38,612 nt of DNA from Planctomycetota bacterium (GTDB lineage: Bacteria; Planctomycetota; B15-G4), in assembly GCA_038212275.1 (NCBI GenBank), contig JBBQUR010000031.1, positions 1-38,612 of the forward strand. The letters run 5' to 3'. Each line of letters begins with the position of its first letter. Position 1 is the first letter of the stretch. Under the pieces are notes generated by a model. It was given only the letters and a program-made list of their open reading frames with translations. It had not been told where the DNA came from and did no database searches. The position numbers and the translations under genes were made by a program. Shown here one piece after another: positions 1 through 38,612 of this stretch.

Positions 1-108
1 CACGGGCGCAGCGCCGGACAATCCTCCCGCCCCGCGCACTCCCCGTGCCACGCGACTCCCGCCCGTCTCGACCAAGGGGCAGCTCTCGGCCAAGCGAAGC
101 CGCGCCCC
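1..108 (-). repeat. Partial inverted copy of the long palindromic non-coding element at 38181-38424, truncated by the window edge
   Basis: 1-108 aligns by eye with the reverse complement of 38178-38286 with about 7 differences; it lies 22 nt downstream of the stop codon of the last GT4 gene. Confidence 0.93.
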
Positions 109-130
109 AAGCGCGACCGCCCCAAGTGTC

Positions 131-1588
131 TTATCCCCTCCGCAAACCGGCGTTCTCCGCACGCAGCGCGGCAACGACATCCTCCCAGCCTTCGCTGCGC
201 AGCAACTCGTGCAGACCCGCTTCGCGCAGCGCGAACAGGCGCTCGCGCTGCGACAGCGACAACTCTTCGGCGGCTCGCGCGTCGCCGGAGGGCTCGCGCC
301 AGGCGCTGCGTGCGGCGAGGTCCGCGTAGAGCGGCATGAGCCGGGCGAGGTGCTCTCCGGCATCGAGGCGCGCTGCGGCCGGCGCGGCGGTCATCGCGGC
401 GCGGGCTGCGGGATCCGTCGCGAGGCGTTGCAGGGCGCGGGCGAGCGCGGCCGCATCGCCTCGCGGGAAGAGCTCGAGGCGGCCGGTGGCCCGGTCGGCC
501 AGCGCGCCGAGGTCGCTGGCGAGCACGGGCACGTTCAGCGCGCAGGCTTCGTCGAGGGCGAAGGAGTAGCTCTCCGCGCAGAGCGTCGGCAGGACGACGG
601 CGTCGATGGCCGCGCGCGAAAGCTCCGCGGGACGGTAGGCCCCGTGCCAGACGACGGCCGGCGATGCGGTGACGGCATCGCCGGAGCGGCCGACGCGCCG
701 CGCGTCGACGACCCGCTGGCGCAGGGCGGCCTCGCCTGCAGCATCGGGAGCCGCGCCCCACACGTGCAGTTCGACGAGCGCGGGGTCTGGCAGCGCGGCG
801 TGCGCATCGAGCAGCACCTCCACGCCCTTGAGCGGATGCAGGTGGCCGAAGGTCCCCACGCGCAGCGGATCGCCGCGGCGCGCCACGCGAGCGGCGAGCG
901 GCGCGGTGGCGGGCTGCAGGTTCACGTCGCTTGCCGGCGCAAGCACGGTGATCGAGCGCTGCAGACCCAGCCACCGGAGCACGCGGGCGCCGTGGCCGGC
1001 GGTCGGCGCAAGCAGCGCGTCGGCCGCCGCGACCTCCGCGCGCAGCTCCGCGGCGAAGGCCTCCACCGAAGCGTCGATCTCGGCATCGCCCTGGAAGCGC
1101 CAGCGCGGCGCGCAATGCCGGCACGCCTCGGGCGAGGGCGGCACCTCGCAGAAGGAGAGATCGGCCTTCACGCGGTGATAGCGCGGGCAGCTCGAGAACA
1201 GGTCGTGCAACGACAGCGCCACCGGCACGCCGCGCAGCCGGCAGCAGCCCACGAGCGTCGTGGTCAGCCGCGCCCAGTGGTGCACGTGCACGACCTCCGG
1301 TCGGAAGTCGTCGAGCCAGGCGAGGAAGGCGCGTTCCACGAACGGGTCGTGCAGCTTGTCCCAGCGCTCGAAGAAGAGGTCGCTGCGATGCACGCGCACC
1401 ACACCGACACCCGGCGCGCGCTGGCTGCGCACCACCTCGAAGCGCGGGCGCCACTCGATGCTGCCCGTGAAGATCTCGATCCGGTGGCCGGCGCCGGCCA
1501 GCGCATCGGCCAGCGCGGCGACGAGGCTCTCGGTGCCGCCGACCAGCTCCGGCGGCTGGCCGTGCACCACGAGGCCGATGCGGGTCAC
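131..1588 (-). CDS. Glycosyltransferase family 4 (GT-B fold)
   Basis: N-terminal PPELVGGTE, VVHVHH, GHLHPLKG, ESYSFALDEA and ASDLGAL motifs; GTG start overlaps the upstream stop (GTGA). Confidence 0.9.
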   Translation of the reverse strand: MTRIGLVVHGQPPELVGGTESLVAALADALAGAGHRIEIFTGSIEWRPRFEVVRSQRAPGVGVVRVHRSDLFFERWDKLHDPFVERAFLAWLDDFRPEVVHVHHWARLTTTLVGCCRLRGVPVALSLHDLFSSCPRYHRVKADLSFCEVPPSPEACRHCAPRWRFQGDAEIDASVEAFAAELRAEVAAADALLAPTAGHGARVLRWLGLQRSITVLAPASDVNLQPATAPLAARVARRGDPLRVGTFGHLHPLKGVEVLLDAHAALPDPALVELHVWGAAPDAAGEAALRQRVVDARRVGRSGDAVTASPAVVWHGAYRPAELSRAAIDAVVLPTLCAESYSFALDEACALNVPVLASDLGALADRATGRLELFPRGDAAALARALQRLATDPAARAAMTAAPAAARLDAGEHLARLMPLYADLAARSAWREPSGDARAAEELSLSQRERLFALREAGLHELLRSEGWEDVVAALRAENAGLRRG

Positions 1589-19802: not shown

Positions 19803-22123
19803 CGCGGCGCCTCCGGTGCCACGTCCGGCGCGATGTCCGGCGCGATGTCCGGCGCGATGTCCGGCGCAAGTACGGACGAGAGCTGCGCAGAGCGGAGGAA
19901 GGGCTGGCAAGGCGCCGTGAGCAGGCATGCGCGCCACCAGTCGGAGAAGGCCGAGTCGAGCGAGCGCACCTGCACCCCCAGCGCCTTGTCGACGCTGCCC
20001 GCGAGCACGTCGTGCTGTGCGGCCGGGTCCGTGCGCCGATCGAAGAGCGTGACGACCTCGTTGCCGTCGTCGGTGATGGCGAGCCAGTCGCGCGACCGGC
20101 TTGCGTGCATGGCGCGCGTCGTCACGTCCGGAAACGGCACGAGCACCGAGTGCGAGACGGGATCGGGAAGCCTCGGCCCGAACGGCGGCGGCAGTCGCCC
20201 CTGCAGCGTGGACATCGAACTGAGATGACCGAGACTGCCGAGGATGCGCGTGACGTCGAGCAGCTCGATCGGCTCGCTCTCGACGAAGGCGCCGCCCGAA
20301 GCGCCGCGCACGCCCCGCCCGGCGAGCACCAGCGGCACCGCCACGACCTCGTCGTGCAGCGTCTGCCCGAAGAGCCGCCCGCCGTGCTCGAAGTGCTCTT
20401 CGCCCATGCTGCCGATGACGACCACCAGCGTGTCGTCGAGCAGCCCCTTGCGCTCGAGCGCGGCGAGCAGCATGCCCACCGCGCGATCCACGCCCGCGAC
20501 CTCCGCGTCGTAGAGCGGGCCGAGTTCCACGGCGAGCGCCTCGGCCGCACCGGGCCGGCTGTCCAGCTTCCGCAGCGAGTCCACGAGCGCCTGATCGGGC
20601 GGCCCCGACACGGCAGCGAGGTCGGTCAGCGAGGCCGAGTACGGATAGGCGGGATCCGAGAAGTGCAGGGCGAGGAACCACTGGAATTGCCCGGCCTGCT
20701 CGAGCCAGTCCAGCGCCTGCTCGACGAGGATCGGGGCGGGCAGTCCATCCAGCACGAAGGTCTCGAAGCCCTGGTCCAGGCCATGGCTGCCCGAGATCCA
20801 CGGACTGTTGCTGAACATGGCGGTGCTCATGCCGCTCCAGCTCGCCGATTGCGCCAGCGTCACGAGCCGCGGCGAAAGCACGCGGCCGGGCCACATGCCG
20901 AGCCCGTGGCTCACGGGCGAGACTCCGGTGAGCAGGCTGGCGACATTGGGCAGGTTCCAGCTGGAGGGAGCGAGGACTCGCTCGTAGCGGCCGCCGCGCG
21001 CAGCCAGCCCGTCGATGGCCGGCGTGGCGGCGTGGTTGTAGCCGTAGCAGCCGAGCCGATCGGCGCGCAGGCAGTCCACGCTGATGAGCAGCACATTGGG
21101 CTCCTTGCCCGGCTCGTGGACGGCGCGCGCCACCGTCGCCGGTGCGCTGACCGACAGCTCGCGCAGGCCGACGAAGAGCTCGGTCCCGCCCTCGCGGCGC
21201 AGCGCGAGATTCACCGACCGCCCGGCCCACGCGGACAGATCCACGCGGAAGAGCAGGTCCGCCGCGAGCGGATCGCCCTCCGGCGGAAGCGCGACGGGGA
21301 GCGCAGCAAGCGGCAGGTCGTCGGCAAGCAGCGCGACCGTCGCCGGCTCGGGGGGCGGCCCGTTGGCCCACTTCCGCCCGACGTGCAGCACGATGTCGAG
21401 GCGGGCCTCGCGCGGCAGGTGTTCCGCCGTGACGAAGAAGGGATCGCGATCGATGAGCGGCACGCACGGCGGGCCGTCCATGGAAATGCGTGCGCTGTCG
21501 GTCGTCGGCGGCGAGAGCACGGCCTGATCGCCGTGGCGCGCGGCCAGGTCCGCGGCCAACGCCCGCGTGCGGATCGGGATCTCGCCCTCATCCACGCCAC
21601 GGCCCTCGGACTCCAGCACCATGTCGGCGAAGTAAGCCGAGGCGATGCCCGGCTTGCTGCGGCCGTCGAGCACGGCGAACTCCAGCGTCACCTCGTCGCC
21701 GGCGGACACGGGAAGTTCGATCGAGCGGACCTGCCACGCCTGCGCGGTGGTCTCGTGGCGCTCGATCTCGTCGCGCCTGCCGTCGGGCCAGAGCACGGAC
21801 ACGGCGACCTCGGGATGCGCCCGCAGGTGCCCGTCGTGGAAGCGCAGCGTCGCGCCGTCGCCGGGAATCGTGACCGGTATGGACAGGCTGCGACCCGCCG
21901 GCACGAACACGGCATCGCGCATGTCGCCCCCGAGCACGAGCGACGGCACGGCCTCGAGCGGCGGGAGCAGCACGCCGGGCTGGAGGCGCACGCGGAGATC
22001 CACGCGGAAATCGGGCAGTTTCTGGCGGGCCCACCACGCACCGAAGAGCACCAGCACGGCGAGGACCGCGGCGAGGCGGCCGGCAGCCCACCACGCCGAG
22101 GCAGCCGGACGATTCACGCGCAC
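19799..22123 (-). CDS. Membrane-anchored sulfatase/alkaline-phosphatase-superfamily protein with degenerate active site
   Basis: N-terminal TM; PNVLLISVDCLRAD.LG.YG, TPAID.LA, GLDQGF, YDAEV..VD and GEE..EHG scaffold motifs. Confidence 0.85.
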   Translation of the reverse strand: MRVNRPAASAWWAAGRLAAVLAVLVLFGAWWARQKLPDFRVDLRVRLQPGVLLPPLEAVPSLVLGGDMRDAVFVPAGRSLSIPVTIPGDGATLRFHDGHLRAHPEVAVSVLWPDGRRDEIERHETTAQAWQVRSIELPVSAGDEVTLEFAVLDGRSKPGIASAYFADMVLESEGRGVDEGEIPIRTRALAADLAARHGDQAVLSPPTTDSARISMDGPPCVPLIDRDPFFVTAEHLPREARLDIVLHVGRKWANGPPPEPATVALLADDLPLAALPVALPPEGDPLAADLLFRVDLSAWAGRSVNLALRREGGTELFVGLRELSVSAPATVARAVHEPGKEPNVLLISVDCLRADRLGCYGYNHAATPAIDGLAARGGRYERVLAPSSWNLPNVASLLTGVSPVSHGLGMWPGRVLSPRLVTLAQSASWSGMSTAMFSNSPWISGSHGLDQGFETFVLDGLPAPILVEQALDWLEQAGQFQWFLALHFSDPAYPYSASLTDLAAVSGPPDQALVDSLRKLDSRPGAAEALAVELGPLYDAEVAGVDRAVGMLLAALERKGLLDDTLVVVIGSMGEEHFEHGGRLFGQTLHDEVVAVPLVLAGRGVRGASGGAFVESEPIELLDVTRILGSLGHLSSMSTLQGRLPPPFGPRLPDPVSHSVLVPFPDVTTRAMHASRSRDWLAITDDGNEVVTLFDRRTDPAAQHDVLAGSVDKALGVQVRSLDSAFSDWWRACLLTAPCQPFLRSAQLSSVLAPDIAPDIAPDIAPDVAPEAPR
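19812..19867. repeat. 12-bp tandem repeat, about 4.5 copies (APDI units)
   Basis: tccggcgcgatg repeated at the 3' end of the sulfatase-like gene. Confidence 0.9.
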
Positions 22124-36328: not shown

Positions 36329-38143
36329 TCAGCGCTCGGCGTAGACCGGCAGCTCCGCGCCGGCGCCGGCGGCGATGACATCGTCGAAGGCATTCCACAC
36401 GAGCAGCCCGTCGTCGGCCTGCGGGTCCAGGATCTGGAAGGCGAGGCGCGCCAGCGGCTGATCGAGGCCGATGCGCAGGCTGCCCGCGGGAAACCGGCGC
36501 TCCTCGCGACGCGTGACCCACTGCACACCGCGCGCGCGGTGCCCCTGGAACTCCTCGGACGCGAGCGACGTCTCCGCGACGCGGCACACGTCCACCGACA
36601 CGGTGAGCGCTGCGGTCAGCGTGTCGACGCGCAGGCCGTGGACCTCGAGCCTGTGCCGCAGCGCGGCCTGCTCCGGCGGCAGCAGATACGCGCGCGGCGC
36701 CTGCTGCTGCTCCGTGGCGCGGAAGCCCACGAAGCACGGCACCTCCAGCGTCGTGCGCGGACCTGAGGCGACCTTGGTGGTCGCTCCCGTGTCGGGGTCG
36801 GTGCGCAGTTCGCTGCCGCGCAGCAGCAGCGGCTCGATGCCGCGGCTCACCAGTTCCGCGCCGGTCGCCTGGAGCAGCGCGCCGTCGCGGCCGGCGGCCG
36901 CGGTGCGCGCGTCGGCCGCCGCGCAGATCTCCTGCAGTTCCTCGCCGCGCTCGGCGGCAAGCTGGAGGATTTCCGTCACGAACGCAGCCGTGGCGTCGAT
37001 GCGCACGCGGAAGTCCGCATAGCTGTAGGCCTCGCTGAGGATCGCGAAGCGGTTGCGCAGGCCGACGTAGTTGTTCCCGAAGCGCGGCCGGTGATCGAAG
37101 GTGCGCCAGCCCGTCACGGTGTCCGGCACGTCCACCTCGTCCTCGTTGAAGGCGTTGATGAAGTTGCCGTAGTCGAAGAACTCGAAGCCGTAGTCCGTGC
37201 GCGCGCGCCGCCGCAACTCGGGCAGCCATTCCTGCTCCAGCGTGTGGCGCACGACGAGATCGGCGCTGGGCGACAGCGGACCCGCGTAGGTCAGCTCGTA
37301 GCCGTGCGCGCTGCCGTTCGTGGTGTGCAGGTCCACGACGACGTGCGGATCCCAGGCCGCGAGCAGCGCCACGAGCGCGCGCGCCTCCGCCGTCTCCAGC
37401 TTCAGATAGTCGCGATTGAGATCCTTGCCGTCGGCCGTCGCGCGCGTTCCGGTGAGCGCCGGCCCGTTCTGCAGCGGCCGGTTGGTCGGGCCGAAGCGAT
37501 CGTTGCCGTCCGCGTTGTAGATGGGCGCGACGAGCAGGACCACGTCACGCACCGGATACGGCTCGCCGCGCACGACGTCGCGCACGACGCCGCTCGCCGC
37601 GCCCCGCCCCGACGCGCCACCGTCGCCTCGCGGCGTGCTGCCGTCGCCTCGCGGCGTGCTGCCGTCACCGCGCGGCGTGCTGCCGTCGCCACGCGGCGTG
37701 TCACCGACGCCTCGCGGCGTGCAGGTGCCGAAGACCACGTCGCGCAGCAATTCCAGGCAGGCCTCCTTGCCCTCCACTTCGCCGGCATGGATGTTCGCCA
37801 TGACGAAGACGCACGGCTTGCCGCTGGCGCGCGCCTCCGACGGATTCGCCACGGGCGGGTCGGCCACGATGAGCAGCGGCAGAACGCGTCCCTCAGGCGT
37901 CGTGCCGAAACTCGTGCGCACGAGGCGCGGATCGCCGGCAGCCTCCAGCACGTCGAGAAAGGCCATGACCTCCGCATGCGTGGACGTGCGCCGGTTGCCC
38001 GTCAGCTCGGGAACGGTGGACGGAGCCGCCACGCGGACGGACGGTGACGGTGAACGCGAAACGGTCATGGTCTGCTGGCAACCCGGGGCGAAGAGCGACG
38101 ACAGGACGACGAGCAGCACGAGTCGGCGAGGTGCTGTCGACAT
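36329..38143 (-). CDS. M14-family zinc carboxypeptidase-like lipoprotein
   Basis: Lipobox-like FAPGC; NIHAGEVEGKE, YNADG, DLNRD and DLHTTNGS motifs. Confidence 0.88.
   Translation of the reverse strand: MSTAPRRLVLLVVLSSLFAPGCQQTMTVSRSPSPSVRVAAPSTVPELTGNRRTSTHAEVMAFLDVLEAAGDPRLVRTSFGTTPEGRVLPLLIVADPPVANPSEARASGKPCVFVMANIHAGEVEGKEACLELLRDVVFGTCTPRGVGDTPRGDGSTPRGDGSTPRGDGSTPRGDGGASGRGAASGVVRDVVRGEPYPVRDVVLLVAPIYNADGNDRFGPTNRPLQNGPALTGTRATADGKDLNRDYLKLETAEARALVALLAAWDPHVVVDLHTTNGSAHGYELTYAGPLSPSADLVVRHTLEQEWLPELRRRARTDYGFEFFDYGNFINAFNEDEVDVPDTVTGWRTFDHRPRFGNNYVGLRNRFAILSEAYSYADFRVRIDATAAFVTEILQLAAERGEELQEICAAADARTAAAGRDGALLQATGAELVSRGIEPLLLRGSELRTDPDTGATTKVASGPRTTLEVPCFVGFRATEQQQAPRAYLLPPEQAALRHRLEVHGLRVDTLTAALTVSVDVCRVAETSLASEEFQGHRARGVQWVTRREERRFPAGSLRIGLDQPLARLAFQILDPQADDGLLVWNAFDDVIAAGAGAELPVYAER
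37620..37721. repeat. 21-bp tandem repeat, about 5 copies (TPRGDGS units)
   Basis: ccgtcgcctcgcggcgtgctg and variants, in frame. Confidence 0.92.
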
Positions 38144-38180
38144 GCGGGGCGAGGTTAGCAAAGGGAGCGCGCGCCGGGGG

Positions 38181-38424
38181 GCGCGGCTTCGCTTGGCCGG
38201 GAGCTGCCCCTGCGGGCGAGATGCGCGGGAGTCGCGTGGCACGGGGTGTGCGCGGGGCGGGAGGATTGTCCGGCGCTGCGCCCGTGGGGCAACAGGACAC
38301 GGAGCAATTCCGGGAGCGGCGCCCTTCGCGCCGGACAAACCTCCCGTCCCGCGCACGCACGCCGAGGCACGGGCTTCCGTGCCATGCGGGGGTGGGGCAG
38401 GTCCCGGCGGGCGCTTCGCTGCGC
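38181..38424 (+). repeat. Long imperfect palindromic non-coding element (structured RNA-like or MITE/REP-like)
   Basis: Nested stems 38181-87/38418-24, 38196-210/38394-408, 38232-44/38377-89 and 38248-76/38328-56; second copy at 1-108. Confidence 0.85.
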
Positions 38425-38612
38425 CTCACGCGTGGGCTTTTTGGGGAACGCATTTTCCGCACTGAGATGGAGATGGACTCGGCATGCGGTCAGGCATCGC
38501 TTGAGCGGGGATGGGGAGATTGCGGTGCTCGGCGCGTGATGCTCAGGTGCGGAATGCTCAGCACTCAATGATCAGAACGCAATCCTCAAGCGGGCAATGT
38601 TCGGCGTGCACG

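Follow-up and report, generated by a model that had tools for sequence, protein, structure and literature searches.

Near one end of a contig from a Planctomycetota bacterium lies a long palindromic sequence (positions 38181-38424), which an earlier note, made from the letters alone, had described as a rod-shaped element of ~245 nt. The locus raises the question of whether this hairpin is a structured RNA, a mobile piece of DNA, or a feature that serves the ends of neighboring genes. The window considered here, i.e., the whole stretch of 38,612 nucleotides that was analyzed, is the entire contig C31 of a 4.65-Mb assembly (40 contigs), which is 91% complete.

The window hairpin and the repeat to which it belongs

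The four nested stems that had been proposed were each confirmed base by base. The outermost stem (38181-87/38418-24) is paired at 7/7 positions, one of the pairs being G-T, the next (38196-210/38394-408) at 14/15 positions and the third (38232-44/38377-89) at 13/13 positions including two G-T pairs, while the innermost stem (38248-76/38328-56) is composed of 27 Watson-Crick pairs, one G-T pair and one mismatch. The apex of 51 nt harbors the sequence GCAA at 38289 and 38304; a reading of these two sites as GNRA-like loops was dropped because the apex is variable between copies of the hairpin and GCAA is not conserved. For the + strand of segment 38171-38434, the RNA minimum free energy is -185.6 kcal/mol, compared to a mean of -150.3 (sd 5.1) for 200 dinucleotide shuffles, none of which folds as well (z -6.9). 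The - strand yields -154.8 kcal/mol (z -4.5), and DNA parameters give -102.9 for the + strand and -91.8 for the - strand. The claim that one strand folds better is thus borne out, where ~19 of the 31 kcal/mol that separate the RNA folds are attributed to base composition because the shuffles of the + strand also fold better.

As had been noted, there is no credible open reading frame over the hairpin. The listed ORF 36329..38356(-) is a gene of an M14 zinc carboxypeptidase that was over-extended upstream to a GTG; the true start codon is ATG 38143, and the product has a signal of the lipoprotein type. The hairpin does not belong to a known RNA family either: an Rfam search with the window end and a full copy returned hairpin noise only, the best matches being miRNA-precursor models at 24-31 bits (gathering scores 70-94). 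A search for intrinsic terminators, i.e., a U-tract straight after the hairpin, gave a single weak candidate behind the arm in the window (0.3 expected) and none in the copy on contig C6.

The true unit is larger than the stand-alone element of ~245 nt that had been envisaged. A non-coding composite repeat of 0.65-1.03 kb (Table 1) has the hairpin at 38181-38424 as its left arm. An alignment of 10 complete units revealed the order left hairpin, inner left module, middle, inner right module and inverted right hairpin, where the middle has lost varying lengths while both inner modules remain conserved. The hairpin arms are ~250 nt each and are also found singly. Left and right arms of one copy give an inverted match of 84-89% over ~160 nt, and a core of 161 positions is common to left, right and solitary arms; the sequence of the outer stem differs between the right and left hairpins, and the arm tips share GGGNCGG and CGGCTT. 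The window copy consists of the first 438 bp of the unit, stopped by the contig end: positions 38175-38612 align at 97% to positions 301-736 of C6:200455-202014, a full copy with 300-bp flanks. No open frame is conserved across 12 copies, including their middle part, in agreement with the non-coding nature of the unit.

Table 1. Features of the window that belong to, or adjoin, the composite repeat
Feature	Positions	Strand	Remarks
Left hairpin arm (L arm)	38159..38430	+	Rod fold ~38175-38430; 97% identical to C6:200755-201012
Probable L arm tip, GGGAGCGCGCGCC	starts near 38159	+	Compared with other L arms
Conserved 161-position arm core	38228..38392	+	Model R1, 163.1 bits; alignment A2, 87% mean column identity
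Unpaired 3' bulge motif CACGCCGAGGCACG and neighbors	38358..38376	+	Near-invariant columns in A2
Inner left module, start of the middle part; ends with the contig	38431..38612	+	Conserved in 10/10 complete copies
Second partial copy, outer half of an L arm, truncated by the contig start	1..125	-	blastn 1-108(-) at 94%
Lipoprotein-type M14 zinc carboxypeptidase gene	36329..38143	-	Pfam PF00246, E 3.1e-12
Native M14 leader between arm tip and ATG 38143	38144..38158	-	Common to L078
GT4 glycosyltransferase ORF	131..1588	-	Pfam Glyco_transf_4; reads into the partial arm 1..125

The suspicion that the element is multicopy proved correct. A blastn search with the hairpin gave 43 matches in the assembly, of which 32 are untruncated and many face each other in pairs at a distance of 400-650 bp. 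A covariance model of the arm core (R1; 161 positions, 48 pairs) gave 40 sense matches at 70-177 bits, one of which is a contig overlap (C12 end/C21 start, same flank), as well as antisense overlaps at the same places at 34-54 bits. In a self-megablast of the genome, the composite repeat is the only high-copy repeat, and, as counted from the blastn matches, ~21 of the 80 contig ends stop inside it, the window end included. Sequencing run X1, which is the probable source of the assembly, covers the flanks at a depth of 27-44 and the repeat at 228-746, i.e., roughly 8-25x higher, and the multiplicity is therefore no assembly artefact. Loose contig ends in the same run place the ends of the unit at C6:200758 and 201774-201779.

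Individual arms were also inspected. C12:158568-158829 and C21:1-246 share a flank, and the "right arm" on C12 is mixed, with an outer 5' half of the left type joined to a 3' half of the right type; it arose either by chimeric assembly or by recombination. On C24, a gene of a PD40-repeat lipoprotein is enclosed by two diverged solitary arms (C24:18456-18715 and 19946-20212), which are 75-78% identical to that of the window; this gene is flanked in turn by ORFs which we take, by eye, to be ffh and murA. A transposase between the two solitary arms was considered and rejected on account of this lipoprotein gene.

Pairing, strand polarity and drift of the arms

In the alignment of the arm core, 94.5% of 1556 cells are standard pairs, compared to 38-53% when the partners are slid. 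Changes on both sides are seen in 7 of 51 pairs, where the shuffle mean is 3.4 and 1 of 500 shuffles reaches 7, and the covariation score is 0.058 compared to 0.043 in shuffles (0/500). This excess offers modest support for a selected structure, because related sequences can exceed shuffles without selection. The outer stems, which are unlike in sequence in left and right arms, are paired in both, and this pairing despite differing sequence is stronger evidence than the covariation scores.

The polarity of the G-T pairs, which had been noted for the window hairpin, is found throughout the family. In 31 of 32 complete arms the strand in the sense of the query folds better, and on the inward-reading strand of both arms there are 251 G-T and 53 A-C appositions, counted for each arm against its own reverse complement in cells that are not independent. 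Because the left and right arms are inverted relative to each other, the better-folding strand of each arm reads from the flank into the element. Neither a single transcript of the whole element nor a genome-wide skew therefore explains the polarity. A different result was obtained for minority variants in pair columns with a Watson-Crick majority, where G-U and A-C variants are about equally frequent (13 vs 12 in left arms, 15 vs 12 in right arms). The polarity therefore belongs to the family consensus, and the individual copies appear to drift neutrally.

Position at gene ends, neighboring genes and distribution

The outer flanks of the 36 full-length model matches, minus two without a flank and one duplicate, leave 33 arms. 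In 24 of these, an inward-reading ORF, called by a GC3 heuristic rather than a gene finder, has its stop 51-81 nt before the core, i.e., 0-30 nt from the arm tip. The remaining nine include the window arm, the left arm on C14, the right arm on C4 and C24a, alongside which a gene starts and reads away. Anchors of the R type lie at most 4 nt after TGA, TAG or TAA in 9 of 16 cases (0.06 at random genome positions) and those of the L type within 25 nt after a stop-like triplet in 14 of 15 (0.27 by chance), in a table where the anchors at C14:121941, C11 and C2:55733 were misplaced by the search patterns. The commonest junction is a stop followed by GGGACGGCTTTG. Because GG follows the stop in just 11.7% of 1875 long ORFs, the G-rich tip is part of the repeat. 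Two genes were set against their orthologues, and both retain the native C-terminus and stop, with the right tip placed directly behind.

No target-site duplication or direct repeat was found at the ends of the 10 complete copies, the flanks of which are inverted stop triplets (TGA...TCA). In the copies on C13 and C3, both tips abut stop codons and almost no native spacer remains; simple insertion does not explain this loss of spacer. Stop-like triplets are thus strongly enriched just before the tips, where selection for gene ends and a DNA target are inseparable, and the stop-triplet rule could reflect such selection instead of a target sequence. The arms that bear on the triplet as a DNA target are the three without an inward gene, i.e., the window arm, the left arm on C14 and the right arm on C4.

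The surroundings of the window copy are atypical for the repeat in that the M14 gene starts beside the arm and reads away from it. The closest M14 orthologue in the metagenome contigs (L078, 73% identity) is free of the repeat and has a 348-nt spacer upstream. The 17 nt just ahead of the M14 ATG, CCCTTTGCTAACCTCGC, which include the TAG before the arm tip, are common to L078; because the TAG is present in both the window and the repeat-free locus, this triplet is native and was not brought by the repeat. In L078, the M14 orthologue is adjacent to and co-directional with an orthologue of C13:108881-111370, at a distance of 348 nt. Here, that gene is found on a different contig from the M14 gene and ends, with its stop codon, directly at the right arm of the C13 copy. 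The separation of the L078 neighbors at arms suggests either a rearrangement at the repeat or that both contigs share one locus through an unresolved join. At the other end of the window, ~7 nt separate the tip of the partial arm from the TAA stop codon (131-133) with which the GT4 gene ends. Across the C6 copy, synteny is not kept in the 7 family loci compared and no native spacer was recovered from them. Within the M14 gene itself, a 21-nt unit (+ strand, gccgtcgcctcgcggcgtgct) is repeated in tandem about five times at positions 37590-37725 and encodes a recurring PRGDGST-like stretch.

Outside the source genome, a blastn search with the full unit gave no match in 40 relatives, and a 31-mer core pattern gave nothing in the genome_contigs and metagenome_contigs collections. 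A split 24-base pattern returned 14 single matches in unrelated G+C-rich genomes of public collections, none of which fits the model. In 15 family genomes, R1 gave one weak match (38.8 bits) in G014, a member of another genus, and among 17 occurrences of a 14-mer of the bulge in 41 relatives (4 for the reversed control) the site in G014 alone fits the model. This match (G014:C2:3002450-3002720, corresponding to L176:1501-1771, - strand) is a single-copy rod hairpin of 270 nt (-164 kcal/mol, z -6.2), which starts within the final codons of bioD and has a convergent sulfatase gene on its other side. The bulge motif GCACGCCGAGACACG is common to this hairpin and the repeat, the 15-mer region of the motif also matching there, and the hairpin may be a distant relative of the repeat. 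An orthologous relation to one of the copies was considered and rejected, as the bioD-like gene of the source genome (G000) has no arm.

In the activated-sludge runs X3 and X4, contigs match the flanks at 90-95% identity, where depth is low, and the repeat, where it is raised; a related population in a second habitat therefore carries the repeat too. Contigs of runs X1-X4 compared with a full copy gave no reliable joint that skips the element, where the joints seen were short-sided (20-35 nt) and rare variants are invisible to contigs. The repeat is so far confined to one species-level lineage.

Origin and consequences of the repeat

The earlier note had suggested an HUH/RAYT-type enzyme encoded elsewhere, for which the searches speak against a Y1 enzyme. 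None of 16 family genomes, i.e., the source and 15 relatives, gave a match to Y1_Tnp (PF01797; IS200/RAYT), while 6 of 14 control genomes were positive; TnpB (PF07282) gave no match in the source genome, and the lone HUH gene found is unlinked to the repeat. The latter is a Y2/IS91-like transposase gene (C5:267525-268658, E 3.8e-17) which runs off the contig end and has fragments at 70-90% identity in C2, C3, C6, C15 and C16; it was rejected as a partner because neither the gene nor the fragments adjoin an arm or share sequence with one. Also rejected, as a parent, was an IS630-like element at C27:59262-60389 (DDE_3, E 1.4e-36), 480 nt from a solitary arm with a small ORF between: it occurs in at least two copies and has unrelated ends of its own (TA|CTGAGTC...GACTCAG|TA, with TA duplication). 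This element is collapsed in the assembly, with 141-nt overlaps with the C7 start and the C36 end and a 139-nt overlap with the C34 start. None of the matches to DDE_Tnp_1, rve or IS110 adjoins a copy, and no insertion sequence that shares ends with the arms was found in the 91% complete assembly; because this assembly breaks in repeats, an autonomous copy could be unassembled. The breaks fall at about positions 340-445 of the element, which is where a copy with a gene in its middle would be expected to branch off.

Several classes of hairpin-forming repeats invite comparison. Di Nocera et al. (2013) treat REP, BIME and REPIN sequences, which go with RAYT genes, and families with longer terminal inverted repeats beside TIRYT genes, with Planctomycetes among the organisms included; a REP is a palindromic unit of 20-40 nt with a GTAG or CGTC tag (PMC3733652). 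Like these sequences, the present repeat is dispersed, extragenic, palindromic, hairpin-forming, often arranged in head-to-head pairs and restricted to a lineage, and is found at gene 3' ends, where transcription of REP-type sequences into RNA hairpins has been proposed (PMC3733652). Unlike a tagged REP of 20-40 nt, the arm spans ~250 nt and is part of a 1-kb unit with a unique middle; by eye, the arm tips carry neither GTAG nor CGTC, and in contrast to RAYT- and TIRYT-linked repeats there is no Y1_Tnp gene in the genome or its 15 relatives.

A second comparison is with PATEs, which are described in Haloquadratum walsbyi as gene-less derivatives of IS605-type elements (PMC3119063). The common features are a transposase-free body of up to ~1 kb, near-terminal palindromes, lack of target duplication, core deletions and a number that exceeds that of autonomous elements. 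PATEs insert beside a short targeting oligonucleotide, and the stop-like triplets before the arm tips may or may not be such a target. Unlike PATEs, the palindromes of which are described there as ~20 nt without terminal inverted repeats (PMC3119063), the repeat ends in inverted copies of a 250-nt hairpin. Moreover, the source genome has no IS200/IS605 TnpA or TnpB.

Folding bacterial MITEs such as Correia, ERIC/IRU, BOX, RUP and SPRITE are non-autonomous and intergenic, have terminal inverted repeats and can serve neighboring genes as RNA hairpins or terminators; their length is typically 100-200 bp, and for most of them the parent IS family is known and the target is duplicated. The repeat is MITE-like in having terminal inverted repeats and no conserved ORF, and in being too short for a transposase. 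It differs from typical MITEs by its length of 0.65-1.03 kb, the absence of target duplication and parent IS, and tips that abut stop codons. From this comparison, it becomes apparent that the repeat resembles all three classes, i.e., REP/BIME/REPIN sequences, PATEs and folding MITEs, yet fails the defining features of each (size and tag, Y1 transposase, non-inverted ends, target duplication).

The reading preferred here, with a probability of roughly 0.55, is that of a lineage-restricted, non-autonomous mobile repeat of ~1 kb, i.e., the mobile one of the two proposals made at the outset, where hairpin 3' tails on the transcripts of neighboring genes are a predicted side effect. The repeat would spread as DNA by means of an enzyme encoded elsewhere, which would act on the hairpin ends, probably in single-stranded form, and attach them immediately 3' of T-G-A or T-A-G, leaving the target unduplicated. 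In a genome of 70% G+C, insertions at stop codons would spare the gene, and such copies would survive. An arm in place would be transcribed as the tail of the inward-reading gene and would fold into a very stable rod, which probably blocks read-through and 3' exonucleases; this effect would not be the repeat's reason to exist, and the copies would drift neutrally once inserted.

The main rival, which we consider unlikely, is a REP/BIME-like host feature, the arms of which are kept for ending or stabilizing convergent transcripts, and which spreads not by transposition but at a slow pace, through recombination or gene conversion from one gene end to another. The location of 24 of 33 arms at gene 3' ends, reading inward, and the polarity of both arms for the inward-reading strand are as expected for such a role, but the arms of the window, C14 (left) and C4 (right) lie upstream of genes, and there is no consistent U-tract terminator. 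Selection for the fold would be in line with a core that is 94.5% paired, with seven double-sided pair changes compared to 3.4 in shuffles, and with outer stems that are unlike on the left and right yet paired; recent variants, however, are unbiased for sense pairs (13 vs 12, 15 vs 12). Arm chimeras and common apex variants suggest exchange between arms, but what is copied is a whole 1-kb unit with a non-palindromic middle, which terminators do not need. Finally, the single long hairpin of G014 stands right after the bioD stop, as a host feature would, while nearly all relatives manage without the repeat.

Two further explanations start from the hairpins themselves. It is improbable that an HUH tyrosine transposase (RAYT, IS200-type or IS91-type) whose gene lies elsewhere in the genome uses the arms, in single-stranded DNA, as hairpin substrates, given that Y1_Tnp is absent from all 16 family genomes and TnpB is absent, and that the Y2 gene and its fragments are unlinked to the arms and have no sequence in common with them. 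The one Y2_Tnp (IS91-like) gene at the end of C5, the ends in the form of long, imperfect, strand-polarised palindromes, and the tips directly 3' of a short fixed triplet without target duplication would all be in keeping with this mechanism, the last being a resemblance and not a link; in Haloquadratum, IS605-type elements and gene-less PATEs behave in this manner (PMC3119063). However, the inversion of the arms puts the strands that fold well on opposite DNA strands, whereas IS200/IS605 ends act on one strand. Very improbable is a family of structured ncRNA genes with a cellular function, one gene per arm, which was the other proposal of the earlier note as a free-standing RNA. The rod is indeed very stable and conserved, its strand polarity is consistent and its unpaired 3' bulge motif is conserved, but the arms start 0-30 nt after the stops of unrelated, inward-reading genes, no promoter-like site was found, and the ~40 copies are present in one lineage only. 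Rfam matches are hairpin noise at less than one-third of the gathering scores, and the pairs decay neutrally, variants breaking them as often as they keep them.

A more far-reaching version of the preferred mobile repeat, which we regard as speculative and rather doubtful, is an undescribed mode of movement in which a gene-less, hairpin-ended element attaches precisely at the 3' side of stop triplets, without duplication or a Y1 transposase, and replaces the intergenic spacer with a 1-kb two-hairpin insulator.

For annotation, the data call for caution: arms should not be called ncRNA genes, and neighboring ORFs should not be extended into them. If the preferred reading is true, the lineage bears ~20-25 kb of one selfish repeat, which reshapes gene ends, breaks short-read assemblies (about one-quarter of the contig ends) and may drive rearrangements. 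Docking at stop triplets without duplication, by 250-nt rods and with no Y1 transposase, makes this repeat a good case for how gene-less hairpin repeats pick gene ends, a question that REP-like elements also pose.
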